From a virus: a stretch of 64,000 nucleotides of DNA. The notes beneath the pieces are model-generated. The model was given only the letters and a program-made list of their open reading frames with translations. It did no database searches and was not told the origin of the DNA. Of the stretch, positions 3,006 through 62,501 are shown piece by piece (position 1 is the stretch's first letter; the number at the start of each line of letters is the position of its first letter). A program made the position numbers and the translations under genes. The stretch lies in UHGV virus genome UHGV-0010228. One strand, given 5' to 3'.

Positions 3006-3049
3006 AGTAAAATGTCCTCCTTTTAAATAGGTGAGCTATAAATTATCAT

Positions 3050-3062
3050 ATAAATAATATAT
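3050..3062 (-). promoter_or_regulatory. promoter-like motif ATATATTATTTAT
   Basis: 44 nt upstream of ATG 3005. Confidence 0.6.
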
Positions 3063-3077
3063 AGCTCTAAATAAAAC

Positions 3078-37840: not shown

Positions 37841-38156
37841 CTTTTATACCCTCGGTTTCCCGATATTTTAGTAGGGGAATAGACTATACAATACTATTTC
37901 TGATTATTTTTATGACAAAATCGACCTTTAGAATCTCGTGCCTTAAAACACAGAAATAGTTCTCTATTATAGTCGTTGAACGTCCATCCTATATTTCTAT
38001 AGATGTTTCGCTGCGTTTGATTACCCAATCCTTAATGATTTTACCATACCGATTCCGTTACTAATCGCCACTATCTATATCACTATGATAGCTTGGTTAT
38101 TAAGGCTCTAAGGGACTCCCCGCAGTTTAAGAGATTTAACGTGGACTATCTCGTTA
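37841..38156 (-). ncRNA. group I self-splicing intron (ORF-less, 316 nt) in nrdD
   Basis: P1: exon GUGGAU pairs intron GUCCAC with U.G at splice site; P10: exon-2 AUCUUG pairs CGAGAU; P element AACUGCGGGGAG, Q CGCAGCG, R GUUCAACGACUAUAA, S GUAUAGUCUAUUCC in canonical order; GNRA-loop hairpin UCGG-GAAA-CCGA; terminal G before exon 2. Confidence 0.75.
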
Positions 38157-40303: not shown

Positions 40304-40439
40304 TTATAAAAAGGTTAATAATTAATACAAAAACAAGTTTTAGATACTTGTCGGTTAATAAATTTATTACAAATACTATTTATATACATATTCAACAACA
40401 CCGTAATTGCTTGATAATACTCGGAAAGGAAGTGATTTA

Positions 40440-43379: not shown

Positions 43380-43423
43380 AAACATCAACATAAGAAAATT
43401 GCAATAGAAAGGTGGCTAAAGTA

Positions 43424-45125: not shown

Positions 45126-45494
45126 TTATATTTTAATGACCCATCTACCCTCTATATTAAATACTACTGCACGAGAAATAAAAATTCCCCATGATGTCGA
45201 ATCTGCTGATTCATCCATACTACTCATCCAATCATTTTTTATCTGATCAAGTGCTTCAAATCTTGAGCCTGTTTCTATATTCGTATCATAGAATGATGAT
45301 TGATATAAATCAGGTTCATTTTTTAATTCATAATTAGAATTACAAAATTGATTAATTTTAGATACTACATAATCGTAATTATGATGTATTGGGTAAATCG
45401 GGGATACTTCCTTACTACAATCAATTCCATACTTAGGTTTTTCTAATAATATATCCTCAATTAACTCAGTGGGCTTAGCATTTAATTTCATCAT
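45126..45494 (-). CDS. hypothetical protein
   Basis: 122-aa ORF overlapping rusA stop by 4 nt. Confidence 0.45.
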   Translation of the reverse strand: MMKLNAKPTELIEDILLEKPKYGIDCSKEVSPIYPIHHNYDYVVSKINQFCNSNYELKNEPDLYQSSFYDTNIETGSRFEALDQIKNDWMSSMDESADSTSWGIFISRAVVFNIEGRWVIKI

Positions 45495-46114
45495 TTATCC
45501 TCCTTACACATATATTTCATATATGCAACCGTTTTTTGTATACGTTTTCTATTATAATCGCAATCAAAATCTTCTTGATATCTAATTTTGATATTAATTC
45601 TAGGTTTAATAGAATAGTATAATTCTACACGTCCGGGATTGATGATATAATCATCTAATAATAATGAATCATATCCACTCATTGTATCAGGATATGTTTT
45701 AGCTAGATTATCCCAATCTGGTTTTTGTAAGGGTCTAATTTTCTTTTTTTCTGCTAAATATGTATCTACATTACTCATACTTTTAGGAGTTGGCAAATAT
45801 GCTTCAATAGTATATTCAACTCTTGTGCATATAGTATCTAATTCTTCAATAAATTTTTTCATCCGTTTTCTGTTCTTTTTAGCATCTTTAACATAAAATC
45901 CAAATTTACCCTGCCTAGGTCTTGGTGATGCTTTAGGAACCCATGGAATCGTTAAATTTATTTCTTCCCATTTAATTTTATCAATTTGCTTTTCTTTTTC
46001 TTTAACTTTATTAAAATCTATTCTTTTTGTATTTTCTAAGTATTCTAATAATTCTTCTGTTGTGTCTGGTAATTTACTATACAATTTTTCATATTCAATA
46101 TCTTCTTTATACAT
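45491..46114 (-). CDS. rusA: RusA-family Holliday junction resolvase
   Basis: KPDWDNLAKTYPDTMSG...LLLDDYII matches RusA catalytic Asp pattern (D.DN..K...D.......DD..I). Confidence 0.65.
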   Translation of the reverse strand: MYKEDIEYEKLYSKLPDTTEELLEYLENTKRIDFNKVKEKEKQIDKIKWEEINLTIPWVPKASPRPRQGKFGFYVKDAKKNRKRMKKFIEELDTICTRVEYTIEAYLPTPKSMSNVDTYLAEKKKIRPLQKPDWDNLAKTYPDTMSGYDSLLLDDYIINPGRVELYYSIKPRINIKIRYQEDFDCDYNRKRIQKTVAYMKYMCKEDK

Positions 46115-46117
46115 AAT

Positions 46118-47635
46118 CTATCCTACTAACGTCGCAAATCTTCTTAATTTTGTTGCTAACGTATCACCCATTTTTCTAGCAAATGACCTAGGTACATCTC
46201 TAACTCGGTTAAGGCAAAATGCGGTAAATAAATCAACCTTTTCTCTAACATTTGATGATTTTAAATCTGCTCCACATAAATTACCGAGATATTCAATTAA
46301 ACCTTCATTTCTCATGAATAATAATGGATGATCTGAATTTGTTAACATTAATTGACTATATAAAGGAGTTATTGTAATAGTAACATTCCATGCAGTCGAT
46401 AATCCATCAATAGTCCATGCTGTCATATCATCACCACCACGGTTTAATTCTATTCCAGATATTACTGCCAATTGACTATTAAACATTCCTGGCTGATATA
46501 CACGAATAACAAATGGGAATGTATACATATTATCCGATATCTGTCTAGGTAAAGACATTGCTAATAAATGTAGTGCCGGCACCATACAATTTAAGAATAT
46601 TGATACTGGATCTCCATATGGAGAGACAAAATCCATACTACATCTAATATCTTTATTATATGTAACACCTGAGAGCATTGATGGAAAGACCATCTGTCCA
46701 CCATTTAATAATCCAGTTCCTAGCATCGAAAATATATCACCGTCACCACCAGATAATGAACTTATCATATCAGTTAAATCTTTAGTAACGTCTGAACTGA
46801 AAAATCCACCTTTATGTTCTCCTTGGAGATAATAATATAATGATGCAGATGCAGTTCCTAATTTTTGTGCAGCATCTGATAGTAAAGGAGAATCTCCTGT
46901 ATCTGTCTGTATATTTTCAGATATATTAGTTTCCTGATTATTTACAAAGAAATGAATATAGTTCTTATCACTAAAGAAATCACCTGATGTAAATAATGTT
47001 TTATAGAAATCTGTCCATATCGATCTAAGAGCAGAATCTTTAGTATTCTTATAACTCGCTCTATATCTCCAATACATATAGTCAAAGTTTTTTAATTCAA
47101 CAGATGTATTTGGCATTAAATAATCGCCAATACCCATAAGAATGGCTGATGCTCTACATAATACATTTAAATACTTTGCATATTCTTCAGTATCTTGCTT
47201 AAAATCGAAAAGTTTCATCGATTCATTACCAATCTTACGTTTACCACTTATTTCTTGCTGAACTTTATATAATATTGCACTATTACCTCTAGATGCTTCT
47301 AATATTGAATTACTAAATGAAGTTTTATCTGAATCTGTAAATTTAGGTAACATAGTTACTTTACCTGGCAATATTGATATTATTGTAGGATTTGATAATA
47401 TAGTTCTAGAATACACCCTTCCAAACCCAGAGCCCATTTCATTTGTATATTGTAAATCAATATCCATATTATATTTAGGCGGTACACCCATAGCTCTAGT
47501 TATTCTTGTTATATCAACCGAGTAATAATCTCTCTCAAGATGCCCAGCAATGGAGTTATCAGTTGGGTCATAATCCTGAGTACTAGATGCTTGATTAGTG
47601 TTTTTCTTAATTGCACCAAATGAGAAAATTCCCAT
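46118..47635 (-). CDS. hypothetical virion-associated protein downstream of giant gene
   Basis: 505-aa ORF, RBS AAGGAGGTGA. Confidence 0.5.
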   Translation of the reverse strand: MGIFSFGAIKKNTNQASSTQDYDPTDNSIAGHLERDYYSVDITRITRAMGVPPKYNMDIDLQYTNEMGSGFGRVYSRTILSNPTIISILPGKVTMLPKFTDSDKTSFSNSILEASRGNSAILYKVQQEISGKRKIGNESMKLFDFKQDTEEYAKYLNVLCRASAILMGIGDYLMPNTSVELKNFDYMYWRYRASYKNTKDSALRSIWTDFYKTLFTSGDFFSDKNYIHFFVNNQETNISENIQTDTGDSPLLSDAAQKLGTASASLYYYLQGEHKGGFFSSDVTKDLTDMISSLSGGDGDIFSMLGTGLLNGGQMVFPSMLSGVTYNKDIRCSMDFVSPYGDPVSIFLNCMVPALHLLAMSLPRQISDNMYTFPFVIRVYQPGMFNSQLAVISGIELNRGGDDMTAWTIDGLSTAWNVTITITPLYSQLMLTNSDHPLLFMRNEGLIEYLGNLCGADLKSSNVREKVDLFTAFCLNRVRDVPRSFARKMGDTLATKLRRFATLVG

Positions 47636-47671: not shown

Positions 47672-47707
47672 AGATGATGAGATAGTAAATTTACTATCTC
47701 ATCATCT
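47672..47707. terminator. 36-bp perfect palindrome terminator after giant gene
   Basis: agatgatgagatagtaaa-tttactatctcatcatct. Confidence 0.65.
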
Positions 47708-47716
47708 TATTTCTAT

Positions 47717-50700
47717 TTATAATGTAGCTATTTTATTATACATTGAATTTAGATTAGGATTCTTTAATGATTTTGCACTTTTTGCTCTACTTCCAGTAGA
47801 AATATTATTTGTCTTATTACCACCAATAATTGTAGTGTTACCACTATTTGTAATGTTAGTTGGACTAGAATTCTTACTGTCACCATACCACTTGTCAATA
47901 GTATTAGCAATAGTATCGAGTCTAGATTCAACTCCATCATTATTAGCATTAATAAATGTATTCTTATTAATAAATCCACCATTTTCAGAATTGCCTCCGA
48001 AGTATGGAGCATCTGGGTTTATATTATATCTCTTTGCCATATTAACATTTGCTATATTTAACTTCTTATTATAATCAGGCCCTAAACCTACTAAGCTATA
48101 TGATGCAGGATTGATCCATGACCCGTTTTTCTTTACACCATAATGTAAGTGGTTACCTGTAGACTTGCCAGTAGATCCAACAAGACCAACTTTAGCACCC
48201 TTAGCAACTCTAGCGCCCTTAGACACTAAGCGCTTACTCTGATGAGCGAAGTAATGTTGAGTTCCCTTACTATCTGTTACTACAACAAGATTACCAAATC
48301 CACCAGTACTACCAGGAGATTCCGATCTAGTAACAGTACCCGATACAGGTGTATAGATTGGAGTTCCAGCTGGTGCTGCAAAATCTATACCATTATGCAT
48401 CTTACGTTTACCGCTCTGTGGATCTGATCTATATCCGAATGGACTTGAAATTCTCGTGTACTTCAATGTTTTCTGAATGGCTTCTTTAGCATTATTACCA
48501 ACTACATTAACTGATGAACCAACTGAAGAGCCAGATAAAGAAGAAGATGATGACTTAGATGTAGTATTAGTGTTTGATGATTTTCCAGATGAGTATTTAG
48601 AATTTATCCAATCCCATAAATCTCCCATCTTTGATGCTTTCATTGCATTTCCAACACCTTCTGCATATCCACTTATCATTTCACCCCACGTGGAGTTACC
48701 ATATCCAATCGGAAGATCAATATCTCCCCAGCCATAGATATTTTTTCCACCAACAGAATCGTATTGTCCTAAATTATAATTTACATATAACCGCTTTAAT
48801 TTATTTTCATAATCAATTTTTGCCATCGGGATATTATTTGGATAATCATACGTTGATGTGCAGTATCCAGCATTAGCAACTGCGTGCATTGCATCATATG
48901 CTGTAGTTGCAGTTCTAGCACCACTATATAACTTACCCGAAAGCACATCCCAATATCTAACTACACTATCACCAATGGTATTATATTTAGCCAACTTACC
49001 TTTTGGCATTACACCAAACATATTATTACTACTGAGAGCTCCACCGGCTGATCCTAAGCTTGTTTCTTGAATCGCTTGCGCCAGCGTTAATGAAGGTGGT
49101 AATGATGTTGATCTGGCGTTATCTTGAGCAAATTTTGCAAGAATATTTAATCTTTCACTTAATGATTTCTTTGCCCACTGTCTTCCACTAACATTTAATT
49201 CAGCCGGTATAGTAATTGAAGATCCGTTAAAATCTACAATTCCCGTACTACCTAAGGTTTTACCATCTTCAGCAGTTTCATAGTCTGATGATACATCACT
49301 TTCCAATTCAGAAGCAATTGCTTCCCATGGATCTGTACCATTCACATATGCTGTCATATATGAACTAATAGCACCCGCAAGTCGCTTTAATTTTGTGAAA
49401 AGATTCTCGCCTTTTAACGAACCTAAAAAGTTCATAACTCCTTCTCTAGTATGCTCTAATAAGCCGGAAGCTAAAGATTCATCAGTTGCTGCAATACTAG
49501 ACATATCAACTCCGTTTACATAGTATTCAGAATTATCAACTCTTTCTTGCATATCTTTAATTTTTGAAGATGATAATCCCCAGTTTACGTAAATATATGA
49601 CAATCTAGTTCTCTCGTGCTGTTTTATTACACTTTTAGACTTATATGTAACATTTGTACCTGTTTCAGTTTCACCATCTTTAATTACTATCGAATATTTA
49701 TTATATTTTTTATTTATTGGAATTTCGACATATCTCCAATAATCTCTTAAAGTATAATATTTATCCCTATCTGCTGATTGCATTACTGTATCTACAAGTC
49801 TTCTTAATTCAGCATCAGTAATTTTAGATACTGGAACGTTTTTCTTTCCAATAGTAGCAACATTACATACATCTGTAGATTTATTAAAATAATCAATTTT
49901 TGTTATTGTAGTATCATTCGATCCAGTCGAACTTTTCCACTTTTTATATACATATTCATAGATATATCTAGTTCTAAAAATATTATCACCATAAGTATTA
50001 ACTTTCTTTCTCCAACTTAATGCTTCATATTTTTTATATCCTTCTACAATATATTTATCATATAACTTAAAATCGGATTTTTTGTAAGATAATATTAATG
50101 AATATAGCGCAGTATTTCCAATACCTGCTAAATCTTTAGTTTGTTCAGGGACTGGTGGAATAGATTTCTTAATTGCACAGAATTTATATGGATCCGCTAA
50201 ATACTTATTTTCAATATCTCTTGAAGTCAGCTTCGTTTTATTTGCTGCATTATATAATTTTGATGGTGCCGGCGGATTATAATTTGTAGTTGTTTTAGCT
50301 TCATTTTTCTTTGCAGTTGTAATATCTTTAACCAATTTTGATTTATTGGATAGCTTATTAAGGGTTGATGATATCAGTCCATACCCAAATGGTATATCAT
50401 ATGCAGTCTTTTTTGTTTTATACATATCTGGAATATTGATATTACCATAACCATATGACCATCCACCAGTTGCATTGTTGATGACTGATGATGCTGAATA
50501 ACTCTTAGTCTTACCATCCATTGGATCTTTGATAATGATATTACCATTTGAATCCATACCTGATGCTACAACTATATGACCAGCTGATGTGAATGGATCA
50601 TTTGTATGATCTCCTCTACCGGCTACTATTGTAGGTACTCCAGATTTTATATTTGTATATAATTCGGATCCTCTAGTTACTTGATGAGGCTTTAATCCCA

Positions 50701-53700
50701 TTTCTGCAGCACCTTTGGTGAATAATGCTGCATTAGCCCCGCCCTGAGTAATATATCCATTAGCAGCTGCCATTTTACCAATGTCTCCAGGTGAAATCAT
50801 TTTACCATTAATATCATTTGCAATCATTGCTAATGATGTAGGTCCACATCCACCGTTTGCCATAGTAGATGGCTGTCCATTTGGTAATGTGCCTAATGGA
50901 ATACTTGACCACTGAGCATTTTTCTGAGATAATGCCTGACCATATCCAAAACCAACAGGTCCTCTGCCAAAACCAGCATTATTTATATTTGAAGATTTAT
51001 TTCTATTATTAGATGTATTAGTAGATGCTCCACTTCTAATAGTACCTCCACTAACATCATTCGTTATATAATCATCATTATAATCAGTCATAGTATAGCC
51101 ACTGTATGCACCAGCAGGTTTACCATAACCTAAAGCTTTATTCATAGATATGATTGGATGTCGAATCACACTCCATACACGTTTTATTACACTTCTATTT
51201 GCTATAGTGTCACTATATTCATCTAATGTTAAATCATCACCATTTTCTGCATTATATTGAGCAGCTTCTTCTTCAAATCTTTTCTGAGCTTCATCAAGAT
51301 TAAGAGCAAACTGATCATTGAATAACCCAGATAATTTATCATATAAGAACGATGCAAATTCACATTTAAGATCACATCCTTTAAATGCACCTACAACTTC
51401 TAATGTTAAGTCTATTACAATACCTACACTAATACCCATAAGGCATTTCATTACTGATGATATGAATCTCATTAATAAATCAACATCATTTGCATTTACT
51501 TTGAATAAATTAGCAGCTTCAAAGAATCCAGTTGCTAAATCGTATACACCGAATAATATTCCTATCGGAGAAGTAGTTATTCCGGCCTTAGCTATCTGAG
51601 TTCCTAATAAAGTTGCATATTTCATATATATTCTATCTTCTGATAATATAAATGTTAACTTATCTTTGAGCCATGAACTAATAGCAGATATTGTTTTAGC
51701 AATAACTGTCTTTTGTCCACTCTTATCTTTCATTATTTTACCTAATACTTTTAGTACAACCTTATTCTTTGCAATTGCACTTATTCCTTTTTCTACTAAT
51801 CCAAATGCTTTTCTAATAAGACCTTTTCTACTTTCTTTAACTGCATCACTAGCTCCTGTTTCAACAACGCTCTGTGTTGATTTCTTAAGAATATCTTTTT
51901 CAAAATCAGTTGTTGCTTCACCTGCAGCAGCCTTTGCAGTTGCTTCAGCAATAGCACCAGCTTCGGACTTTGACATAGTAAATCCAAGATCAAGGGCTGT
52001 ATCTTTAATAATGTTTCTTCTAGCAATATCCACAATTGATTTGCTTACAGATTCTGATGCATATTTTTCAAGTACTCCTAATCTTTCTTCAACTGGAAGA
52101 TACTTTAATACTTCTTCTAATAATTCTTCAGGTGCTTTATGAACACTAAGGCCTTTAGCAACCATAGCTCCAGCACCACTTTTAACATTACCAGCAGCAC
52201 TTTCAGCAGATATTCCTTTGAGAATATCATATGCTTGCTTATCATCTATATTTGAAACTAATACTTTATTGACTTCGTCTAATGTCTTATCAGATATATT
52301 ATTTAATGCGCCATTCTGTAATACCCTAGCTCCAATATCAGATGCACGTCCACTTCTAAGACCTGTAGAAGATACTATAGTATTTATACTTGATCCTGCT
52401 ACTGATCTAGCAACTGAACTCGTAGCTTTAATAGCGGCATCGCCTAATGCGGCACCTCTAGCTCCACCATATAATGCCCCTGTAACTGGCGAAATTCCTC
52501 CTGGCATTAATCCAAAAGCTCCACCAACCGTAGCACCCAGGACTGCACCGGCACCCTTATATAGCAATTTTCCAGTTCTACCACCACGAGCAGCATTAAT
52601 AGCACCTCTAACAAATCCATTTAATCCTATTCTTTGTGCATCAGTATGCTCAGCATATGTTGCATTTCCATCTTCATCAATACCTATAGCATCTTGATCT
52701 CTAGTATATGAAATAGTACCATCTTCATCAACATCAATAACATTATTACCATTAGCTTGCAAGCCTTGAATCATTGATGCTCTTTGCTCTTTGCTCATGT
52801 GAGCAGTTGATAATGTGTATACTTCAGTTGTATCAGTTTTAAACTTCCATCCTGGGACTAGTTTACCAACAGTAACATTCCATAATGCTTTAAGAACTGA
52901 TCCTGCTATAGTTGGAATTACAGAAATAAATGCATTCATCATTGGTTCTGCTAATGTATTAAACATGACCTTTATAACATCAGCAATATAATGAGCATTC
53001 TTTCCTATATTTTCAAATACTTTAGTTATTGATGGGAATATGTATTGATTCCAATACATTGGGAAGTTTTCTGAGAACTTATTAATACCATTACCAATAG
53101 ATGTTAATCCATGCTCTAATGTTGGTAATACATATTGATCCCAAATTGCTCCACGCTCAATGAAATTAGAGAATTCCTGAGTCTTAGCTTCAAGTCTAGC
53201 CTGGAAACCAGGTCTTATAATTTCAGCTATACCTATAGTTATACCTGCTACAGTGTATGCAGGAATAATTTTCTTAACACCAGCAACTACTAATTTAGCA
53301 GGAAGGGTATTGCCAACCGCACCTAATACACTTCCAGATACTCCTAAAATCTTTCCAAGAGCTTTTCTAATTATAGATGTATCATTTTCAGTTGGTTTTT
53401 CTTCTTCTTCATTAGTTTTAGCAGCAGATGTTGCACCTATAGTTGCAACTGAAGTTGCACCTTTACGAACTTCCTCAGTATCTTCATCTTTTCTATTAAG
53501 AGCAAAAAAGCTCTTAATATTATTTTTCATATTTTGAACATTCTCATTTTCTGTTATTTTATATTTATCCATTATACGTTTACCGAAACGCTTTAATGGA
53601 TTTCCTTTTGACGTACTCTTTCTCTTCTTTCTAACATCATCACCAGTAATATCACCATCTGTATTGATTTCAACATCAACTGCAGCAGCATCAGCAATAT

Positions 53701-56700
53701 CCTGATTAATTTTATTAGCTTCTTTCTGAAGATTTTCATTTTCTTTAGCAAGATTTATCTGTTCTTCCTGAAGCTTATGATTTAATCCTGCTAATTCATT
53801 TGTCTCTCTGAATAAATCAATTATCTTCTGTAAGTAAGATGACTTAGCGTCGTCATTATCTTTAATCTTAGATTCTACAAAATCTGCTAAACCATTAATA
53901 CCTTCAGGACCTAATCCCTTATCAATTTTACCAGATTTCTTAACTCTCTTAAGATTTTCAATAACGCTAGCATTAGATGCATCTTCTGATGTTCTACCAC
54001 CAAATGTGAATCCTGAAAGATCTACATCTCCTGCATACGCAGCTTTAATTAATTTATCAAGGAATATATCTTTATTAATACCTACTCTAGAATACATCGC
54101 ATCATCATTAAATCCAACATTCATTCTCGTAGCTTTTCTGCGTATATCTCCATATTTTCTAACATATTCTTCACGCATAGCTTCATATTTATTCTTGTCA
54201 GCTTCAAACTGATTCTTCTTTGAATTATATCTAAATCTCTTTTTCTCATTCTCATCTTTACGCTTTCTCTGCTTTACAAAATCTCTAAAATTACCAGTAG
54301 CAAAATATCCTGATTCTCTATATTCGTTAAATAAATCATCATCTAAGATATCTGCACTAAGATTACCAATATCTTCGATACCCATACCACTAGTATCTAT
54401 TCCATGTCTCTTTAACTTCTTTAATATTCTATCTGCATATTCAGTTCTATCAGCTTCACTAGTAAATTCATTTATTTTAAGATGGCTATTTAAAGCCTTC
54501 CCAGCAAAGAAATCTCTTATTGACTGGAGATAATCTTCTACTGCTGTCTGATAGCGCATAGTGCGTTCTCTTGCAGCTTTTTCTTCTGGGCTTTCCTGAA
54601 CTTTAACACCATCACGCATTATCTGCTCTTCAAGTGTGCCATTCTTTACAGCCTTAGACCATTCTCCACGTCTATAAAGTAAATCCATAATATCATCAGA
54701 TGTTTGTAATCTATTCAGATACTTATCATCTTTCATACCTGCTTTACGGAACATCTCACGATATCTCTTCACCTGTTCATCTGTTAAATCTACTTCTCTA
54801 CCACCAAGATCTTTAATTGTGATATTTTCTCTGATCTTATTGACCTTTTTCCACATCTTATTTTCTTTCTTGGCAGCTTTAGCTTTTGCATTTAGATCAT
54901 CTAAATCATTATCTGCTGTCATCCAATCAAATGCATTTCTACCAAGATCTGACATTTGATCAGCCCATCCTTCTTTTGCAGCTCTAGCTATATCACCTTT
55001 ACCTCTAATAGCTTGGAATATATCTACAGCTTTTCCTAATCCTGTTCTGCTATTACCAGCTTCACGTTCAGTTCTCCACTTACCCATGAGCATAGTAGCA
55101 ATATTTCTACGATATTCTTTTCTATAATCACCCATAGCATCTTTACGTTTACCACGAGTCAATAACTCTAAACCACGAAGACCTATAGAAACCGGAGCAA
55201 CTGCACCATAGATTCCTAATGACGCCGTTTTAGTTACAGCTTTAGTGATAAGCTTAGTTAATGACGCTACTGGACCAAATATTCTATGAAGGGCACCTTC
55301 AATAATAGTCTTAGCACCATCACCTATTTTTTCAATAACCGCTTTTATATTGTCTACAATATTATCTTTAACTTCTTTTATACTATCAACTATTGGACCA
55401 AATGCTTTTCTAAATGGTATTGTAATATTTTTTCTAATGGTATTTAAAGTTCCCATTACATGTTCTTTTGCAGGTCCTATGATATTATCAATTATAGTAA
55501 CCTTCATAACATTAGCCATTCGTCTTAAAAGACCATTAGTTTTTCTACCTATTACATTACCATTTTCATCAACTTGCTCTGTACCAAATAAGTATTCATT
55601 AAATTTCTTACTTGCAGAACTCATTCCGATTACCATACCAGCAATACCCATACCAATAGGTCCACCAGCAGATAATGCTGCAGGAATAAATCCCATATGA
55701 GACATCGTAGTAGCAGTTAATGCACCAATAGCAAAACCTTTTATTCCCTTACCGATCATAGGGAATAATTTGCCGAGTCTTTCTTTAGATTTATTCCAAT
55801 GATTTGATAACCAAGTTCCGCTGCGTTTTCCATCAGCACCTTTTTCACCAAATAACATTGATTGGAAAGACTCATTATTCTTTAATATACCTAATGCCGC
55901 ACCTAATAACGCACCACCAATTACACCAGAAGGTAATAATGCAGATGTTAACACTCCACCAGCACCAAACTGAGATACTGTCGAAGGCAATACTATTGAT
56001 TTTATAACACCTAATGTTGCACCACCAATTGCAAATGGTAAAGCTTTCTTAAATGATGCTTGCATCTTTTTAGTGAATATACCACCATGACGCTCACCAT
56101 TATCATCCATCTTACCAAACATTACAGACTGGAATGCTTCGGTGTGACTAAGAATTGATAGACCAGCCGCAGCGATAGCTCCACCTAATACAGTGTGAGG
56201 TAAAAATGCAAGACCGGTTAATCCTAAATTTTGTCTAGTTGCTAATAATCCGAAAATACCACCAGCTATTGCAGCTGCAGCTGCTTTAGGAGCAATCTTC
56301 TTTGCAGATTCTTTAAATTTTTCAAAGATATTCTGAGTAACTTTCTTTTTCTTAGTACTATCATTACTACCTTTTATATCTTCAGCAACATCTTCTGCTG
56401 CATCTTCAATTTTTTCTGCACCATTATATATCGTTAACGCAAATTGATCTTTTGCTGACTCGATCATATCCGCGGAATTATCAACTCCAACTGTGAATCT
56501 TTTCTTAGCACCTATAAGTTTCTTTCCAGTGAATCGTTTATAGTTACGCTTAGGGCCTTCTAATAATTTTGTCTCAGTAGCATTTATATATTTCTTATCT
56601 TCTACATCATCTGTAAGATTACTAGTAATATTTACTGTAGATTTTCTATCTCCTGGCTTTCTGAGTTTCCTCTTAAGAGATTCTTTTGTAACCCCTTCAG

Positions 56701-59680
56701 CCAATTGTACTTTACGAGGATCATTTTCCATTTGATAAACTTTATTTCGTTTATCTTTTCTATGTCTATCAGTCCATGATAAATATTTAAGATAAGTTTC
56801 ATTATTTTGCCAATCCTCACCAAATAAGTAAGTCATGGTACCACGCTGAATCTTATCGTATCCTTTTCCTAATTCTTCTTTGGTCTTTTTCCAAAAAGAC
56901 TTTTTACCATCCTTAGCTTTCTTAACCTGATCTTTAAATATACCATCTTTTTCATCAAAGAAATATTTCTTTATCTTTTCTCTAAGTTTTTTAGATGGTT
57001 CACTATCCCAGAATTTTGATAATAATCCATTTTCACCAAATAATGAAGATGTGAAATTAGTAAAGCTTGCAGATAAATTAGAAATTGCTATTGTATTAGC
57101 ATTTGCATTCTGCATTAAAGCTTCTTCTGGGGTATTTGGTGTTGGAGCATCTTGTAATCTATTAACTAAATTATTTCTAAGAGCAGTATCCTGTGCAACC
57201 TTTCTCTGGTCTCTACCAAGAATATCTTTTGGATTTCCGGTAATGTCCATCTTTTCAACTTGTGCACGAATATCATCAGTATCATTACTATGCCTAGCTC
57301 TTCGATTACGCATTCTATTGCGTAATGCTGCTTTATTACCACTAAATTTTACAGACCGTTTAGTACCAACACTATATGTGTTATAATCCAGATCATCAAA
57401 ATCAAAATCATCGGCGCTTCTAACTGGTCTGTAATGTTTATAATCGAAATCATCTTCGAGATCTTTATTTATCCCATATACAGTTCTAAAAAGTCTATCA
57501 TCTACAGGATCTACAAATTTTGATCTAGCATATTTATTCATTCTCTTCTTGCGCATTGCTTCGGCACGTTTAGGAGAGAATTTTCCAACAATTTTTTCTC
57601 CAAGATGAGTATTCTTTACTATCCATTCTTGATAATATTTCTTAATTATTTTCTTACATTCAGTCTTTTGCTCATTGATAGATGTAGCTTTATCGGCTAC
57701 CTTTTGTATTTCTTTATAAAATCCAGGTTCTGATGCGATATCTTCAATAATATCATCAGTAATTCCCATTTCTCGCATATAGTTCAATATACGTTCATCA
57801 ATCAAGCTTGAATCCATAAAGGCATATTCAAAATGGTTAATATCGAACTTTCTTCTACCACGTTCATCAGTACGTTTAAACTTTATATTATTTCTTCTAT
57901 CATTCCAAGCAGTTTTTCCGTACTGATTATTAATGTTTCTAAATATTGAAGTATCTGATGATCCAATATCAAATAACTTCTCGTTCAATCCAGCAATTGA
58001 CTCATTTATATAATTATCATAATCCATTATAGCTTGCTTATATAGATTATAATTTTCTTTCTTAAGATATGAGATTGCCTTTGCGAACTCAATACGTGCT
58101 TGTTTATCATCTATATTATCAAATATTCTATCATTAGTAATTTCACTTACTCTAGATGAAACCTTTTTTCTTTGCTTCTTATCACCAACTCCATTTATTG
58201 CATCAGTAATAGATTCGGCCATATTATTAAGAGAATATTTAAGCTCATCATTGAAATCTTTTTCAATACGATCTTTAGTCTTGAACATTCCTGTTTCATA
58301 ATCATAGTATCTCTTATTACCTTTACTATATGAAACTCGATTAAATCCATTAGGATCAACATTGAGATTTGATTTGGATAATATCTTACTGATATTAGCA
58401 ATATTATTATCCATACTACTCAAATATTCAGGAATTACTTCAACTATAGCTCTTTGAGCATATCCATTCCATGGTAAAGCATCTTTTGTATATCCACTAA
58501 GGCTTAATCCTTTTAATTTATTTCGGTCATTACCAAAAATATCACTAATTCCTAATAATGACCATATCATCTGCCCACCAAAGCCTAAACCTTTTGGTGA
58601 ATAACTCCCAATTCTTTTCAATATCTCATCGGCATATTTGCCAATCTTTTCATCAAATTTCTTTAATGATTTTGGCATTGCCATACCAATGAATTTTTCT
58701 GCAATAAATCCTACAGGATCATTCTTTATTTTCTTTATGGTATCTCCTCCGCCCATTCCTTGACCAGGAAGCATGAGCTGAGCCATTGTACCTAATAATG
58801 AATTTCCAAAATTATTTTTAACGTATCCAAGATATTCTTTTACATTAAATCCACTAGAAGTGTCAAAGTTTTTGCTTGAAGGTTTATCTTTAGAATATTT
58901 ATATTTTGTCATATTTTCAAGCATATCGCCAATTCCACTCATCATATCATTTGCAGATGAGAAGAAATCGCCCATAGTTTCATATGCTTGAACTGTATTT
59001 GAATTATGAAATTCTAACAGTTTTTCAATATTATCATTTATTCTATCAACCTTATGATTTAAGGTCATAAGTGATGAATTCAACAAATTCGTTCCATATA
59101 GAACTGAATTTATTATAGCATCAGCATTAGCACTAGAAAGTTTTGCATTTGTCCTATTTATACTATTAGCTAAATGCTCCATTCCTTTTACTTGTGCCGA
59201 ACTTGATAGCACAATTGACTTCGCAACACCAGCAGATGCATTCATATACACTTCTGCGTTTTTTGAATTATTTGTACTATCAGAAAACTCATCATCATCT
59301 AAAGCAAAATCATCATTTAAATCAAAATCTCCCATTATATCATTTTCAAATGAATCATATAATTCATCTGATACAATATTTGAGAAGACTCCCGAATTTA
59401 ATTGCTCTTTTGCTCTATTAAAAGTATCTCGAGCAGCTTTAGCGAGTTTATTTTTACCCATCTCTCTCTGCTCTTGGGTCTGCACATTCTTAAATTTTCT
59501 TGATGTATTTCTTATCTCCTTATTAATTTCTGAAATACCTTGTGCAGTATTATATGTTGATGGTAATACTTCTTTAGCAGTTATCTTAAAAGCATTACCA
59601 ACTGACGATCCAGCATTTCTTACCCAAGATTTTTTCTTAGATCTCGAACTGCTAGATCTAGATTTTATAGTTCTAGCCAA
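47717..59680 (-). CDS. giant (3987-aa) tape-measure-like / ejection protein with peptidoglycan hydrolase domains
   Basis: uninterrupted 11.96-kb ORF; Gly/Ala-rich hydrophobic segments with threefold (E/K)SFQSxxFGE repeat; papain-like Cys peptidase (NGGCGPTSLAMI...GHIVVASG); glucosaminidase/FlgJ-like (AQAIQETSLGS...NNMFGVMP); C-terminal M23 peptidase (HNGIDFAAPAGTPIY...GNHLHYGV); TTG start with RBS AAAGGTGG. Confidence 0.8.
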   Translation of the reverse strand: MARTIKSRSSSSRSKKKSWVRNAGSSVGNAFKITAKEVLPSTYNTAQGISEINKEIRNTSRKFKNVQTQEQREMGKNKLAKAARDTFNRAKEQLNSGVFSNIVSDELYDSFENDIMGDFDLNDDFALDDDEFSDSTNNSKNAEVYMNASAGVAKSIVLSSSAQVKGMEHLANSINRTNAKLSSANADAIINSVLYGTNLLNSSLMTLNHKVDRINDNIEKLLEFHNSNTVQAYETMGDFFSSANDMMSGIGDMLENMTKYKYSKDKPSSKNFDTSSGFNVKEYLGYVKNNFGNSLLGTMAQLMLPGQGMGGGDTIKKIKNDPVGFIAEKFIGMAMPKSLKKFDEKIGKYADEILKRIGSYSPKGLGFGGQMIWSLLGISDIFGNDRNKLKGLSLSGYTKDALPWNGYAQRAIVEVIPEYLSSMDNNIANISKILSKSNLNVDPNGFNRVSYSKGNKRYYDYETGMFKTKDRIEKDFNDELKYSLNNMAESITDAINGVGDKKQRKKVSSRVSEITNDRIFDNIDDKQARIEFAKAISYLKKENYNLYKQAIMDYDNYINESIAGLNEKLFDIGSSDTSIFRNINNQYGKTAWNDRRNNIKFKRTDERGRRKFDINHFEYAFMDSSLIDERILNYMREMGITDDIIEDIASEPGFYKEIQKVADKATSINEQKTECKKIIKKYYQEWIVKNTHLGEKIVGKFSPKRAEAMRKKRMNKYARSKFVDPVDDRLFRTVYGINKDLEDDFDYKHYRPVRSADDFDFDDLDYNTYSVGTKRSVKFSGNKAALRNRMRNRRARHSNDTDDIRAQVEKMDITGNPKDILGRDQRKVAQDTALRNNLVNRLQDAPTPNTPEEALMQNANANTIAISNLSASFTNFTSSLFGENGLLSKFWDSEPSKKLREKIKKYFFDEKDGIFKDQVKKAKDGKKSFWKKTKEELGKGYDKIQRGTMTYLFGEDWQNNETYLKYLSWTDRHRKDKRNKVYQMENDPRKVQLAEGVTKESLKRKLRKPGDRKSTVNITSNLTDDVEDKKYINATETKLLEGPKRNYKRFTGKKLIGAKKRFTVGVDNSADMIESAKDQFALTIYNGAEKIEDAAEDVAEDIKGSNDSTKKKKVTQNIFEKFKESAKKIAPKAAAAAIAGGIFGLLATRQNLGLTGLAFLPHTVLGGAIAAAGLSILSHTEAFQSVMFGKMDDNGERHGGIFTKKMQASFKKALPFAIGGATLGVIKSIVLPSTVSQFGAGGVLTSALLPSGVIGGALLGAALGILKNNESFQSMLFGEKGADGKRSGTWLSNHWNKSKERLGKLFPMIGKGIKGFAIGALTATTMSHMGFIPAALSAGGPIGMGIAGMVIGMSSASKKFNEYLFGTEQVDENGNVIGRKTNGLLRRMANVMKVTIIDNIIGPAKEHVMGTLNTIRKNITIPFRKAFGPIVDSIKEVKDNIVDNIKAVIEKIGDGAKTIIEGALHRIFGPVASLTKLITKAVTKTASLGIYGAVAPVSIGLRGLELLTRGKRKDAMGDYRKEYRRNIATMLMGKWRTEREAGNSRTGLGKAVDIFQAIRGKGDIARAAKEGWADQMSDLGRNAFDWMTADNDLDDLNAKAKAAKKENKMWKKVNKIRENITIKDLGGREVDLTDEQVKRYREMFRKAGMKDDKYLNRLQTSDDIMDLLYRRGEWSKAVKNGTLEEQIMRDGVKVQESPEEKAARERTMRYQTAVEDYLQSIRDFFAGKALNSHLKINEFTSEADRTEYADRILKKLKRHGIDTSGMGIEDIGNLSADILDDDLFNEYRESGYFATGNFRDFVKQRKRKDENEKKRFRYNSKKNQFEADKNKYEAMREEYVRKYGDIRRKATRMNVGFNDDAMYSRVGINKDIFLDKLIKAAYAGDVDLSGFTFGGRTSEDASNASVIENLKRVKKSGKIDKGLGPEGINGLADFVESKIKDNDDAKSSYLQKIIDLFRETNELAGLNHKLQEEQINLAKENENLQKEANKINQDIADAAAVDVEINTDGDITGDDVRKKRKSTSKGNPLKRFGKRIMDKYKITENENVQNMKNNIKSFFALNRKDEDTEEVRKGATSVATIGATSAAKTNEEEEKPTENDTSIIRKALGKILGVSGSVLGAVGNTLPAKLVVAGVKKIIPAYTVAGITIGIAEIIRPGFQARLEAKTQEFSNFIERGAIWDQYVLPTLEHGLTSIGNGINKFSENFPMYWNQYIFPSITKVFENIGKNAHYIADVIKVMFNTLAEPMMNAFISVIPTIAGSVLKALWNVTVGKLVPGWKFKTDTTEVYTLSTAHMSKEQRASMIQGLQANGNNVIDVDEDGTISYTRDQDAIGIDEDGNATYAEHTDAQRIGLNGFVRGAINAARGGRTGKLLYKGAGAVLGATVGGAFGLMPGGISPVTGALYGGARGAALGDAAIKATSSVARSVAGSSINTIVSSTGLRSGRASDIGARVLQNGALNNISDKTLDEVNKVLVSNIDDKQAYDILKGISAESAAGNVKSGAGAMVAKGLSVHKAPEELLEEVLKYLPVEERLGVLEKYASESVSKSIVDIARRNIIKDTALDLGFTMSKSEAGAIAEATAKAAAGEATTDFEKDILKKSTQSVVETGASDAVKESRKGLIRKAFGLVEKGISAIAKNKVVLKVLGKIMKDKSGQKTVIAKTISAISSWLKDKLTFILSEDRIYMKYATLLGTQIAKAGITTSPIGILFGVYDLATGFFEAANLFKVNANDVDLLMRFISSVMKCLMGISVGIVIDLTLEVVGAFKGCDLKCEFASFLYDKLSGLFNDQFALNLDEAQKRFEEEAAQYNAENGDDLTLDEYSDTIANRSVIKRVWSVIRHPIISMNKALGYGKPAGAYSGYTMTDYNDDYITNDVSGGTIRSGASTNTSNNRNKSSNINNAGFGRGPVGFGYGQALSQKNAQWSSIPLGTLPNGQPSTMANGGCGPTSLAMIANDINGKMISPGDIGKMAAANGYITQGGANAALFTKGAAEMGLKPHQVTRGSELYTNIKSGVPTIVAGRGDHTNDPFTSAGHIVVASGMDSNGNIIIKDPMDGKTKSYSASSVINNATGGWSYGYGNINIPDMYKTKKTAYDIPFGYGLISSTLNKLSNKSKLVKDITTAKKNEAKTTTNYNPPAPSKLYNAANKTKLTSRDIENKYLADPYKFCAIKKSIPPVPEQTKDLAGIGNTALYSLILSYKKSDFKLYDKYIVEGYKKYEALSWRKKVNTYGDNIFRTRYIYEYVYKKWKSSTGSNDTTITKIDYFNKSTDVCNVATIGKKNVPVSKITDAELRRLVDTVMQSADRDKYYTLRDYWRYVEIPINKKYNKYSIVIKDGETETGTNVTYKSKSVIKQHERTRLSYIYVNWGLSSSKIKDMQERVDNSEYYVNGVDMSSIAATDESLASGLLEHTREGVMNFLGSLKGENLFTKLKRLAGAISSYMTAYVNGTDPWEAIASELESDVSSDYETAEDGKTLGSTGIVDFNGSSITIPAELNVSGRQWAKKSLSERLNILAKFAQDNARSTSLPPSLTLAQAIQETSLGSAGGALSSNNMFGVMPKGKLAKYNTIGDSVVRYWDVLSGKLYSGARTATTAYDAMHAVANAGYCTSTYDYPNNIPMAKIDYENKLKRLYVNYNLGQYDSVGGKNIYGWGDIDLPIGYGNSTWGEMISGYAEGVGNAMKASKMGDLWDWINSKYSSGKSSNTNTTSKSSSSSLSGSSVGSSVNVVGNNAKEAIQKTLKYTRISSPFGYRSDPQSGKRKMHNGIDFAAPAGTPIYTPVSGTVTRSESPGSTGGFGNLVVVTDSKGTQHYFAHQSKRLVSKGARVAKGAKVGLVGSTGKSTGNHLHYGVKKNGSWINPASYSLVGLGPDYNKKLNIANVNMAKRYNINPDAPYFGGNSENGGFINKNTFINANNDGVESRLDTIANTIDKWYGDSKNSSPTNITNSGNTTIIGGNKTNNISTGSRAKSAKSLKNPNLNSMYNKIATL

Positions 59681-59767
59681 ATTAAATTCACCACCTTTCA
59701 GCTATAGATTAAATTTAGCCTAAACTTTTATCGGTCTGTTTTTATAGGTTAATTTAGGGAATTAAAT

Positions 59768-59799
59768 AAAATAGATAGTTTATATAAACTATCTATTTT
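59768..59799. terminator. palindromic terminator
   Basis: aaaatagatagttta-ta-taaactatctatttt. Confidence 0.65.
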
Positions 59800-59808
59800 A
59801 TTTAGTAT

Positions 59809-60216
59809 TTAAATCTTTTGTGGTATATGTGTATATACACAGCCTTCATCACCATCACCGGAATCAAACTTACAATAATTAATATACTTTAAAGCAATTA
59901 ATTGCGCCAAATCTTCATGAATTCCTAAACAAATGTGCATATCCTGACTCATCTCACCAATAACGAAATATGTTTGACGACCTTCATCAATTGTTTCTAT
60001 ATCTCTATACCAACTTTTTAATTGACTTATAGATATTGGTTCATAATTATTATCTTGGGCAAATTGATATTTTTCATATATTTCTTTTCCCGTAAGCTTT
60101 TTTAAATCAGAATTATATGCGTTTAATACGCGTCTTGCTTCATCATTAAATTCTTTAGTTGCAGTTAATGCTATTACTAATTTAAGGAGATCATTTTCAA
60201 TCTGTTTTATTATCAT
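59809..60216 (-). CDS. hypothetical protein
   Basis: 135-aa ORF. Confidence 0.5.
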   Translation of the reverse strand: MIIKQIENDLLKLVIALTATKEFNDEARRVLNAYNSDLKKLTGKEIYEKYQFAQDNNYEPISISQLKSWYRDIETIDEGRQTYFVIGEMSQDMHICLGIHEDLAQLIALKYINYCKFDSGDGDEGCVYTHIPQKI

Positions 60217-60338: not shown

Positions 60339-60896
60339 TTATCTATCACCATATTTTTTATAAAATTCATCCACATTATCTTGATAATATCTAGTTATAT
60401 TATTTATCATTGTGGTAATATCTAAATATACAAACTCTCCCCTGTCGTTAGTAAATAAATAAGCAATATCTTGATCTCCAATCCAATAATATACAATCTG
60501 TCCACCGAGTTTTATTTTGAAAAAATCATTATTGTAAGTTTTAGAATATTCCTTAAATTTTTTATTATCTGGATCTACATCATTAACTGATATTTCAGTT
60601 TCATCATCAGGTCCAAAAATCTTTCGAAATTCTTTTAAAAATAATGCTTTGTTATATTTAATTTTATTCGGATAGCATAATTCGATATAAAGATTTAAAA
60701 AGTTAGTGATATAATTTAAATCTTCATATTTATCTCCTTCTATTACTCCATTAATTTGAGGATCATTGTATACAACTCTTGAAATTTTTCGCATGAGTAC
60801 ATTCTGAGCTTTCTTTTGACTTCTTGCTTCTTTTTTAACAGCTCTTATATCTTTTAATTTAGAAATTAATCCTTCCATTACTATTATATCATTCAT
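60339..60896 (-). CDS. hypothetical protein
   Basis: 185-aa ORF, RBS AAGGAGG, duplicated promoter cassette upstream. Confidence 0.5.
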   Translation of the reverse strand: MNDIIVMEGLISKLKDIRAVKKEARSQKKAQNVLMRKISRVVYNDPQINGVIEGDKYEDLNYITNFLNLYIELCYPNKIKYNKALFLKEFRKIFGPDDETEISVNDVDPDNKKFKEYSKTYNNDFFKIKLGGQIVYYWIGDQDIAYLFTNDRGEFVYLDITTMINNITRYYQDNVDEFYKKYGDR

Positions 60897-60960
60897 ATAT
60901 AATACCTCCTTATATTATATAGTATTAATATAATGTATAATAAAAAAAAACAAGTGAATG
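60897..60960 (-). promoter_or_regulatory. duplicated promoter/5'UTR cassette copy A (sigmaA-like TTGTTT-N15/16-TATATT, T-tract UP element)
   Basis: about 65 bp near-identical to 62502-62566; upstream 26-bp palindrome gtgaatgactaat-attagtcattcac (60951-60976). Confidence 0.5.
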
Positions 60961-61009
60961 ACTAATATTAGTCATTCACTATTATTAACTATATTGATTA
61001 TAATTCATT

Positions 61010-61420
61010 ATATACCACAACTACCACTCCGTAGAATATACACACTTTGTCTCGCGATCATGCAACATGTTAACCATGACCTAACACCCCGTCGCCACCG
61101 TTTGCTTCTTCGGATCTTCAAGCTTTCGAAAACCCGCTTAAAATATACTACCCGCCACGTTACACGGTTTGCTATCTACATCGGCTCTTTCGAATGCAGA
61201 ATGCTCAAATGTTGAAACTTTAAATATCACTTAAGGACATTTATCATTACAACGCAATCATAGCATTAAATGTGCAGATTTAGATAGCAACAAATAATGC
61301 AATCATGTTTCGAGTATATTCTAAACGGGGAGGTTCTCTAATTGCACCGCCACGCCCAGTGAGGATGTTAGTCACCTACAGCAGTAATTGCGTAGAGCTA
61401 TATAACATCGTTAATTATAA
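61010..61420. other. GC-rich ORF-free island within about 940-bp non-coding region (candidate structured RNA / cis element)
   Basis: local GC far above flanks, no ORF with RBS, only an 85-aa spurious ORF. Confidence 0.3.
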
Positions 61421-61901: not shown

Positions 61902-62501
61902 TCAAATCATGCCCATCATCATCAGATTATTCTGCTGCAGCATTTGTTGCTGTTGCATCATATCAATATGTTGTTGTTGCATTTGTTGCTGTTGCATCTG
62001 AGCAAATAATAATGCAAGCGATTGACGATCCTTTGGTGACATATGAGTATTAATTCTATCTATCAATTCTTTTCGTGTCACACATCTTAATTCATCATAA
62101 ATGAAAAAATAGAATTTAGTCGTACCGATAATTGATTTAAATTCCATAACAGCAAATTTGACGCCATGAGTTTTAGTATTGATATATGTAATTTTAGTTT
62201 TAATTTTTGCATTATCATACTCTATTTTTTTAGTATATTTCCTCTCTTTAGCTTGCACTATTAATAATTCTTTAAACAATGCATCATCTTCCATCGCATG
62301 TTTAAGTGCTATCTCAAGACCTCCATTAAATTCTCTAGATCCATCATCAAATGTGTTACAATATAATCTAACCAATTCAGTATCTGATGCTTTTTCTAAT
62401 TTTTTCGGAAGGTTCCTTATAGCATTAAATATCTTTCCTTCATATGCATAATCATTATCTATTACATTATATGATTCTAATGTATTATATAAATCAAACA
62501 T
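61902..62501 (-). CDS. hypothetical protein with Q/M-rich C-terminal tail
   Basis: 199-aa ORF ending QQQQMQQQHIDMMQQQQMLQQNNLMMMGMI; RBS AAGGAGG. Confidence 0.5.
   Translation of the reverse strand: MFDLYNTLESYNVIDNDYAYEGKIFNAIRNLPKKLEKASDTELVRLYCNTFDDGSREFNGGLEIALKHAMEDDALFKELLIVQAKERKYTKKIEYDNAKIKTKITYINTKTHGVKFAVMEFKSIIGTTKFYFFIYDELRCVTRKELIDRINTHMSPKDRQSLALLFAQMQQQQMQQQHIDMMQQQQMLQQNNLMMMGMI

Follow-up and report, generated by a model that had tools for sequence, protein, structure and literature searches.

The window analysed here is a stretch of 64,000 nucleotides (nt) from the virus genome UHGV-0010228. On its minus strand, at positions 47,717–59,680, an open reading frame (ORF) of 3987 codons plus stop, with a TTG start, encodes what we refer to in the following as the giant protein. 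We propose, with a probability of roughly 0.6, that it combines a tail-internal tape measure and a tail lysin in one chain and belongs to a contractile-tailed jumbo phage of the AR9/PBS1–phiKZ supergroup. The counterparts of this protein in cultured phages are annotated as tape measure (AR9), as tape measure and tail lysin (Madawaska) or as tail-associated lysin (phiKZ gp181). The evidence that ties it to such counterparts consists of the homology of its N-terminal domain (block A), the order of three neighbouring genes and a shared layout with lytic domains near the C-terminus. Furthermore, its modelled segments are largely helical, it contains at least eight hydrophobic stretches, and within the family the two ends are conserved and enclose lytic domains of nine kinds that replace one another.

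In the mechanism that we envisage, the first ~2900 residues, predicted to be mostly helical, would be stretched along the lumen of the tail tube, with the N-terminal domain and a C-terminal module as the two anchors of the chain, and the part ahead of the enzymes would set, or help to set, the length of the tail. Upon sheath contraction, the protein would be expelled with the DNA behind it, and its C-terminal enzymes would open the thick cell wall of the host, probably a Gram-positive anaerobe: a GH73 glucosaminidase would act on the glycan strands, an M23 metallopeptidase on the peptide cross-links and a C39-like peptidase on a further peptide bond. Gly/Ala-rich hydrophobic units of ~88 amino acids (aa) might enter the membrane and line the passage for the DNA, as for pb2 of phage T5. 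The latter, our working model, measures the tail, is expelled and inserts hydrophobic segments into the membrane, all within one chain that also bears a muralytic domain; a 2008 paper by Boulanger is said to deal with it. By contrast, T5 is a siphovirus, pb2 comprises just ~1100–1200 aa with one lytic motif, and a sequence relation to the giant protein is not expected. In a review, pb2 is listed among the tail muralytic proteins.

Architecture of the giant protein

The chain is composed of the following segments:

57,875–59,680, minus strand: block A, N-terminal helical domain (aa 1–602), conserved in 53 of 54 relatives, with an invariant V414-I-P416..L419 motif
55,106–56,428, minus strand: block B, three units of ~88 aa (aa 1085–1525), delimited by hydropathy, family alignment, and motif and profile scans
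52,421–53,383, minus strand: second Gly/Ala-rich, partly hydrophobic region (aa ~2100–2420), kept in closer relatives only
51,089–52,015, minus strand: block C, conserved helical block (aa 2556–2864) with one strongly hydrophobic helix at 2746–2764
50,444–50,974, minus strand: block D, C39-like papain-fold Cys peptidase (aa 2903–3079) with G-[FY]-G motifs on both sides
49,151–50,398, minus strand: lineage-specific stretch (aa 3095–3510, 416 aa), outside the family alignments
48,770–49,135, minus strand: GH73 glucosaminidase domain (aa 3516–3637; Pfam) with QETS and NNMFGV motifs
48,107–48,403, minus strand: M23 metallopeptidase domain (aa 3760–3858; Pfam) with H-x3-D and H-x-H
47,720–48,094, minus strand: C-terminal module (aa 3863–3987; iterated search) with the helix SRLDTIANTIDKWY

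A first reading of the DNA, the original prediction, had named three enzyme domains, a papain-like Cys peptidase, a glucosaminidase and an M23 peptidase, and all three score above the curated Pfam cut-offs: Peptidase_C39_2 (PF13529) at aa 2941–3054 (E 3.9e-10, 40.9 bits, cut-off 24), Glucosaminidase (PF01832) at aa 3516–3637 (E 3e-12, 47.7 bits, cut-off 30.2) and Peptidase_M23 at aa 3760–3858 (E 1.4e-27, 96.1 bits, cut-off 28.7), the last also matching M23 structures in the PDB with E values down to 2e-25. Every motif quoted there is present, and the catalytic motifs are intact: GCGPTSLAMI (2944–2953) and GHIVV (3034–3038) in the Cys peptidase, AQAIQETSLGS (3534–3544, with QETS at 3538–3541) and NNMFGV (3552–3557) in the glucosaminidase, and HNGID (3762–3766) and HLHYG (3844–3848) in the M23 domain. 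The Glu of QETS we take to be catalytic, from general knowledge of the GH73 family. The stretch between Cys peptidase and glucosaminidase (aa 3095–3510) is not matched by any entry of Pfam, PHROGs, NCBIfam or the PDB, and a search for its relatives returned none, but also missed the identical protein; this stretch may be a fourth functional module.

Block B contains the threefold (E/K)SFQSxxFGE repeat that had been noticed in Gly/Ala-rich hydrophobic segments. Each unit consists of two such stretches followed by x-S-F-Q-S-x-L-F-G-E, the copies being EAFQSVMFGK at 1181, ESFQSMLFGE at 1270 and KKFNEYLFGT at 1358 (spacing 89 and 88 aa); a fourth, looser copy (TNFTSSLFGE) is found at aa 874. A spacing of 80–89 aa recurs in most relatives and in g083 of the Yersinia phage phiR1-37. 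Gly/Ala-rich hydrophobic segments extend over aa 1129–1353, 2131–2269 and 2746–2764, and the stretches counted above, at least eight, were identified by Kyte–Doolittle hydropathy.

AlphaFold models cover aa 2–620 and 2570–3090. The first segment is almost all helix, at low confidence (mean predicted local distance difference test score, pLDDT, of 49); in the second, aa 2570–2850 are mostly helix (mean pLDDT 61), and the C39-like domain reaches a pLDDT of 75–90. A long helical chain with hydrophobic segments, a trait of tape measures, is thus what these low-confidence models and the hydropathy profile depict. As to the long coiled-coil N-terminal half proposed originally, the modelled segments are indeed helical, but over the first 2100 aa the 3.5-residue periodicity exceeds that of shuffled sequences only slightly (mean z ~0.3–1.5), and for this reason we do not claim a coiled coil.

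A large family with exchangeable lytic domains

Searched against 1.84 billion cluster representatives, the block A profile matches 2251 protein clusters at E ≤ 0.001 and 1356 at E ≤ 1e-30; among the matches listed, the domain starts at residue 1 of the protein. We retrieved 196 family proteins, 182 of which are at least 2300 aa long, with a median of 3702 aa, an interquartile range of 3367–3987 aa and a maximum of 5477 aa; 47 of these 182 are as long as the giant protein or longer. The family alignment reveals colinear blocks, A (~20–550), B (~1100–1500), C (~2600–2840) and D (2900–3080), with variable stretches in between, and a region, 3100–3860, that is exchanged among relatives. The C-terminal module of ~120 aa, detected by iterated search, is common to 63 of 188 proteins, independent of their enzyme set.

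Precomputed Pfam lists were evaluated for 57 relatives, obtained by searching a set of 5.8 billion proteins with the N-terminal 2900 aa. Their lytic domains are of nine kinds: M23, C39_2, glucosaminidase, CHAP, Phage_lysozyme2, NlpC/P60, SLT, VanY and VgrG3-like lysozyme. Three different lytic Pfam domains occur together in at least 12 of the 57, and four have the exact set of C39_2, GH73 and M23. Given the median length, the number of relatives at least equal to it in length and the recurrence of triple sets, the giant protein is an ordinary-sized, typical member of a very large family, within which neither its size nor its triple lytic arsenal is unusual, contrary to what had been supposed. 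In the literature searched, the block A family is not described as such; the kind of protein, a tape-measure-like tail lysin, is already known.

In some relatives, a second C39-like domain lies in the N-terminal third, i.e. in the putative ruler part (P0016, aa 757–878; P0024, aa 748–865; P0025, aa 979–1105).

Counterparts in cultured phages

Past the 3' end of the giant gene, two further genes complete a conserved triad:

46,118–47,635, minus strand: gp182-like partner gene, 505 aa, phrog_20401 'virion structural protein'
45,491–46,114, minus strand: RusA-like resolvase gene, third gene of the triad

By BLASTP, the 505-aa partner matches BpSp gp264 (5e-28), Madawaska gp085 (1.5e-26), phiR1-37 g085 (3.5e-22), which is marked as structural, JD-Fnp1 gp175 (2.6e-16) and phiKZ gp182 (3e-13). 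The whole triad is kept in seven metagenomic relatives, on contigs of up to 265 kilobases (kb), as well as in JD-Fnp1, phiR1-37 and BpSp; Madawaska and phiKZ retain its first two genes. The following genes precede the gp182-like gene (in phiKZ, the gp182 homologue) in cultured phages:

BpSp gp263, 1797 aa: 'hypothetical', with an AR9 counterpart annotated as 'tail tape measure protein'
Madawaska gp087 and gp086, 1992 and 1963 aa: 'tape measure protein' and 'tail lysin'
Yersinia phage phiR1-37 g083, 2553 aa: 'tape measure tail fibre protein'
Fusobacterium phage JD-Fnp1 gp176, 3026 aa: 'papain-like cysteine protease AvrRpt2'
phiKZ gp181, 2237 aa: tail-associated lysin

The giant gene is the positional counterpart of gp181, of the AR9/BpSp tape measure, of g083 and of gp176, and the counterparts have the same layout, a long non-enzymatic part followed by one or more lytic domains near the C-terminus. 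The block A profile, built from the N-terminal 600 aa, detects BpSp gp263 (6e-69), JD-Fnp1 gp176 (1e-42), phiR1-37 g083 (2e-33) and Madawaska gp086 (2e-17); phiKZ gp181 is matched by none of the block A–D profiles.

The closest cultured relative is JD-Fnp1 gp176, which matches blocks A, B, C and D (1e-42, 6e-30, 2.5e-16 and 1.6e-18) and is followed by a gp182-like gene and RusA in a myovirus with a contractile tail of 335 nm. It differs in being 960 aa shorter, in having neither GH73 nor M23 and in a further C39-like match inside the chain (aa 1309–1447); its BLAST identity to the giant protein is 22–27%, and JD-Fnp1 has a genome of 180 kb and a Gram-negative host. Likewise, gp263 of BpSp (vB_BpuM-BpSp) has a homologous N-terminal domain (also seen by BLASTP, 2e-9), F-x3-[LMIVF]-F-G motifs and a lytic domain near the C-terminus, and gp264 and the resolvase gp265 follow it as the same triad. 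However, it is less than half as long, and it has a VgrG3-like lysozyme (PF21277) as its sole lytic domain and no C39-like peptidase.

In Madawaska, a Staphylococcus jumbo phage, gp087 and gp086 carry M23, Phage_lysozyme2 and NlpC/P60 domains, and the authors of work on Staphylococcus jumbo phages noted helices and transmembrane segments in the tape-measure and tail-lysin proteins. Here, two paralogous genes of ~1990 aa each stand in place of the one gene in the window. Finally, phiKZ gp181 is a giant protein encoded upstream of the gp182 homologue, with an SLT domain at 1885–1978, near its C-terminus. It is a virion-associated peptidoglycan hydrolase and the only member in this family position examined here with measured muralytic activity, namely that of its lytic domain. 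By contrast to the giant protein, it has a single transglycosylase domain, lacks a RusA gene next to it in the region seen and is described as a baseplate puncturing device.

Tail length

The scaling of tail length is based on two cultured calibrators. JD-Fnp1 has a tail of 335 nm and a giant protein of 3026 aa, with 2669 aa ahead of the C-terminal peptidase; MarsHill-type phages have a tail of 233 nm and proteins of ~1990 aa, with 1319 aa ahead of the M23 domain. This corresponds to 0.111–0.117 nm per residue of total length or 0.126–0.177 nm per residue ahead of the enzymes, and the tail of the window phage would then measure roughly 360–510 nm, which is long, but not unprecedented. The 'exceptionally long' tail expected at the outset shrinks accordingly; a value of 598 nm presumes that all 3987 residues measure at 0.15 nm.

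Putative ruler in the tail tube or lysin at the hub

Several points weigh against the proposed ruler-and-lysin role. The phage is known here from its genes alone, and the presence of the giant protein in virions is something that we infer. In that respect the original prediction, which spoke outright of a virion protein, went too far, whereas its choice of a tape measure or wall-penetration protein fits the position of the gene and the homology to annotated counterparts. In the accessible part of the BpSp virion proteome, gp263 is not among the 23 proteins, and the tape measure of DC4 is, in the accessible part of that report, among the predicted virion proteins and not shown among the 15 detected by liquid chromatography–mass spectrometry. 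None of the canonical tape-measure models in Pfam and NCBIfam (PhageMin_Tail, TMP_2, TMP_3, Tape_meas_lam_C, TP901-type core) matches at E ≤ 0.1, and the sole PHROG 'tape measure' match, phrog_167, covers aa 3663–3853, which is the M23 region. The gene does not lie between tail chaperone and baseplate hub genes, as in a tail module, its neighbours being the gp182-like gene, RusA, NrdD and small non-conserved ORFs; this test is weak, because the genomes of the supergroup have no modular order. The small ORFs upstream are not kept even in a relative with 92% identity, and the two calibrators of tail length disagree (0.126 versus 0.177 nm per residue ahead of the enzymes). Lastly, the tie to phiKZ gp181 rests on gene order, because the block A profile misses this protein, and reviews place gp181 in the cell-puncturing device of the baseplate, not in the tube lumen.

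The same observations on gp181 bear on a different placement, in which the giant protein would be a cell-puncturing lysin at the hub of the tail tip or baseplate, its long helical part would be a needle or fibre, and the ruler would be some other protein. Such a role would agree with the description of the positional counterpart gp181 as a needle-like puncturing device on the baseplate, with the annotation of phiR1-37 g083 as a tail fibre protein as well as a tape measure, and with the absence of a canonical tape-measure signature in Pfam and NCBIfam. Yet in those regions of the cultured relatives that were inspected, annotation offers no competing candidate for the tape measure, and the annotators of AR9 picked the counterpart of the giant protein as the tape measure. 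Moreover, Gly/Ala-rich hydrophobic repeats and ~2900 largely helical residues suit a protein of the lumen better than an external fibre, and the range of lengths in the family is narrow (see the interquartile range above). We regard a hub lysin as unlikely, though well worth keeping in mind.

The C39-like peptidase

The C39-like domain raises a question of its own. Its catalytic set, Q2919, C2945, H3035 and D3052, is invariant in 48 of 48 aligned sequences. Compared with the PDB, the domain profile best matches the pseudomurein endoisopeptidase PeiR (5e-9) and also finds the leader peptidase ComA (1e-5); for the AlphaFold model of the domain, Foldseek returns ComA (TM score 0.78, root-mean-square deviation 2.7), PeiR and papain-like toxin domains. 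By profile and model, the nearest solved relatives are a mixed group: a cell-wall isopeptidase, but also leader-peptide peptidases and protease toxins. In one lysin survey, Peptidase_C39_2 is classed as a lysin catalytic domain, by classification without assay, and is seen only in lysins of phages with Gram-positive hosts. The original prediction had counted three peptidoglycan-degrading domains; three hydrolase domains are there, and the C39-like one may cut the cell wall. Profile and fold matches and the invariant Q/C/H/D set are what the domain has in common with PeiR and ComA; it differs from them in being embedded in a chain of 3987 aa, where it is bracketed by G-x-G motifs.

The giant protein contains 17 G-[YFLMW]-G motifs versus 6.1 expected (p<0.0005), and in its C-terminal third they lie at the cassette borders (2851, 2903–2914, 3077, 3099, 3659 and 3865), with 'GFGPG' preceding the C-terminal module. 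Across 130 relatives, the enzymatic part contains 746 G-[YFLMW]-G motifs where 282 are expected, a 2.6-fold enrichment, and the motifs peak sharply immediately before and after the peptidase domain. They may be linker caps or processing sites.

If they are processing sites, the protein could be a self-processing polyprotein, in which the C39-like peptidase cuts the precursor at G-[YFL]-G between the cassettes and frees separate lysins, a scenario that is compatible with a tape-measure role of the N-terminal part. It would account for the excess of the motif at cassette borders and for its enrichment around the peptidase in the relatives; it would also agree with the conservation of the C39-like peptidase among enzymes that are otherwise exchanged, and with the double-glycine leader peptidases among its structural neighbours. 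Proteolytic processing is, moreover, known for the tail lysins Tal2009 and TP901-1 Tal. In these structural proteins of the tail, too, an M23 domain is located at the C-terminus, and their lytic domain is set free by proteolysis; they are, however, baseplate proteins of small siphoviruses and not tape measures, and the homology shown is confined to M23. On the other hand, a G-aromatic-G motif is unlike the Gly-Gly of C39 substrates, the motifs might merely cap flexible linkers, the best PDB match of the domain is a cell-wall isopeptidase, and the lysin survey places Peptidase_C39_2 among lytic domains. Self-processing hence seems doubtful to us, about as much as a hub location. Slightly less probable still is its extension to the family as a whole, with the C39-like peptidase mainly a processing protease and not primarily a wall hydrolase. 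Were this so, a changeable set of lysins would be freed at the tail tip, or virions would be a mixture of processed and unprocessed forms, as in Tuc2009/TP901-1, and thousands of jumbo phages would swap wall-degrading cassettes behind a fixed chassis of ruler and protease.

Possible ejection from the head and integrity of the gene

A third possibility is an ejection protein that is packaged in the head, as T7 gp16 or as in phiKZ/SPN3US, leaves the capsid via the tail and builds a channel across the envelope. Hydrophobic segments combined with lytic domains are also found in internal-core proteins of podophages (T7 gp16 is so listed in a review), the M23 domain finds an 'Internal protein' and a 'Gp16' in the PDB, and the giant gene follows the portal gene in JD-Fnp1 and adjoins virion RNA polymerase genes in phiKZ. 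The neighbours, however, say little in this regard, because these genomes have no modular order, and reviews assign gp181 to the tail, to which the annotations of the homologues also point. A head-packaged protein is improbable, clearly more so than a lysin at the hub.

Lastly, the idea that sequencing or assembly errors fused several genes into one long ORF, for which nothing speaks except the two genes (1992 and 1963 aa) at the equivalent position in Staphylococcus jumbo phages, is refuted by independent assemblies with an uninterrupted ORF at 100%, 98% and 92% identity, by the colinearity, from residue 1 through the C-terminal module, of relatives with ~30% identity, by a chance of ~1e-158 for such an open frame and by the paralogy of the two Staphylococcus genes, in contrast to the giant protein, which has no internal duplication.

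The ORF thus stands as originally given, a single uninterrupted frame and not several genes split by errors or frameshifts, with these flanking features:

47,717–59,680, minus strand: giant ORF, full-length copies of which occur in independent assemblies
59,681–59,700, minus strand: ribosome-binding site AAAGGTGGTG, 8 nt 5' of the TTG, read directly from the sequence
59,766–59,800, minus strand: AT-rich hairpin followed by a T run, terminator-like, 3' of the upstream gene, read from the sequence
47,672–47,707, strand not specified: 16-bp palindromic hairpin directly past the stop codon of the giant ORF

The identical 3987-aa protein is recorded from six contigs, the relatives at 98% and 92% identity comprise 4011 and 4010 aa, and many distant relatives are of similar size. 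The probability of the stop-free run was calculated for the base composition of the window, in which stops are expected in ~8.7% of codons. Plus-strand ORFs across the gene are short, as had been remarked, with none above 159 aa. The ribosome-binding site ahead of the TTG start is a strong one. The hairpin at 59,766–59,800 is not in the list of our hairpin scan, which demands at least three G-C pairs.

A fusion of two paralogous tape-measure-like genes in the manner of Madawaska was considered as an origin of the giant gene and rejected: the N- and C-terminal halves of the giant protein match each other with a best BLAST E value of 1.2, a profile search found no second copy of block A, B or C within it, and BLAST does relate one Madawaska gene to the other. 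The closeness of their summed length (3955 aa) to that of the giant protein is apparently a coincidence, given the lack of internal duplication.

The phage and its probable host

The window has a GC content of ~29% and no tRNA genes, and its genes include NrdD anaerobic ribonucleotide reductase, NAD ligase and DnaB-, Dda- and SbcC-like genes. The features that bear on the phage and its host are:

14,590–15,810, plus strand: split multisubunit RNA polymerase beta-type gene
16,050–18,086, minus strand: split multisubunit RNA polymerase beta-type gene
18,403–19,302, minus strand: probable endolysin with Amidase_2 and Cu_amine_oxidN1 domains
38,146–40,248: NrdD anaerobic reductase gene

Split multisubunit RNA polymerase genes are a hallmark of AR9/phiKZ-type jumbo phages. 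The subunit in the window is closest to that of PBS1/AR9 (~30% identity), with weaker matches to Staphylococcus, Listeria, Yersinia (phiR1-37), Fusobacterium and phiKZ-type jumbo phages, and the metagenomic relatives lie on contigs of 227–265 kb; the window belongs to a jumbo phage of the AR9/PBS1–phiKZ supergroup. Among 50,697 phage records, megablast of 24 kb found no DNA-level relatives and tblastn of the first 2500 aa of the giant protein no match, so that the link to cultured phages came only via the downstream 505-aa gene and profiles.

The host is probably a Gram-positive anaerobe. The endolysin with Amidase_2 and Cu_amine_oxidN1 domains and the NrdD gene hint at it, and the Peptidase_C39_2 domain, given its confinement to lysins of Gram-positive-host phages in the survey mentioned above, is a further hint.

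Neighbouring genes and the region upstream

In several relatives, the partner protein is longer (648–747 aa) and has an SH3_3 domain (L004, 20,854–22,800; L010, 15,049–17,232; L013, 14,800–17,043), which suggests that the gp182-like partner, too, contacts the host wall. The resolvase of BpSp, gp265, was found in purified virions, which is odd for a DNA-repair enzyme. Beside the triad, a 990-aa gene (40,407–43,379, plus strand) and a 557-aa gene (43,412–45,085, plus strand) are conserved in L003 and L004; the former also matches L005 and BpSp gp268. Both are probably further structural genes.

Six relatives have a gene-free stretch of 0.6–1.5 kb on the immediate 5' side of the giant gene. The gaps, the matching element in the window and the small ORFs around the latter are:

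L004, 9116–10,000; L010, 2197–3000; L011, 2082–3000; L012, 859–1768; L013, 2403–3000: gene-free gaps
60,950–61,420, minus strand: matching window element, a GC-rich island (up to 44% GC versus 29% in the genome)
59,809–60,216, 60,339–60,896 and 61,902–62,501, minus strand: small ORFs of 135, 185 and 199 aa without family matches

The window element ends in a hairpin and T-run terminator, has a folding z of −4.0 and is 95% identical in L003 (9382–9852); the L004 gap as a whole has a folding z of −9.6. The gaps were examined as a candidate conserved structured RNA: their folding scores in 300-nt windows overlap those of coding controls, the gaps and the element have no Rfam match, and the divergent gaps show no sequence similarity to each other. 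A leader, a promoter region and a lineage-specific RNA are the candidates for what this stretch represents. The three small ORFs have no counterpart in L003, the relative with 92% identity, where the element abuts the giant gene; two of them lie between element and giant gene in the window. By this comparison, they are a local insertion or deletion of accessory genes. As candidates for tail chaperones, the small upstream ORFs were rejected on the grounds that they have no family matches and that three are absent from this relative.

Implications

Little is understood of the giant tail proteins that jumbo phages make. In the family described here, the N-terminal domain, the hydrophobic repeat of ~88 aa, the helical block, the Cys peptidase and the C-terminal module form a fixed chassis, between the parts of which wall-degrading domains of at least nine kinds are freely swapped. 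Accepted views of how tape measures or tail lysins work are unchanged by it. For genome annotation, it provides a rule for a gene that is now labelled 'hypothetical' or 'papain-like protease'. The conserved peptidase raises a testable question, i.e. whether it cuts the wall or the protein itself, and the exchanged domains constitute a large natural library of virion-borne lysins against anaerobic, probably Gram-positive hosts.

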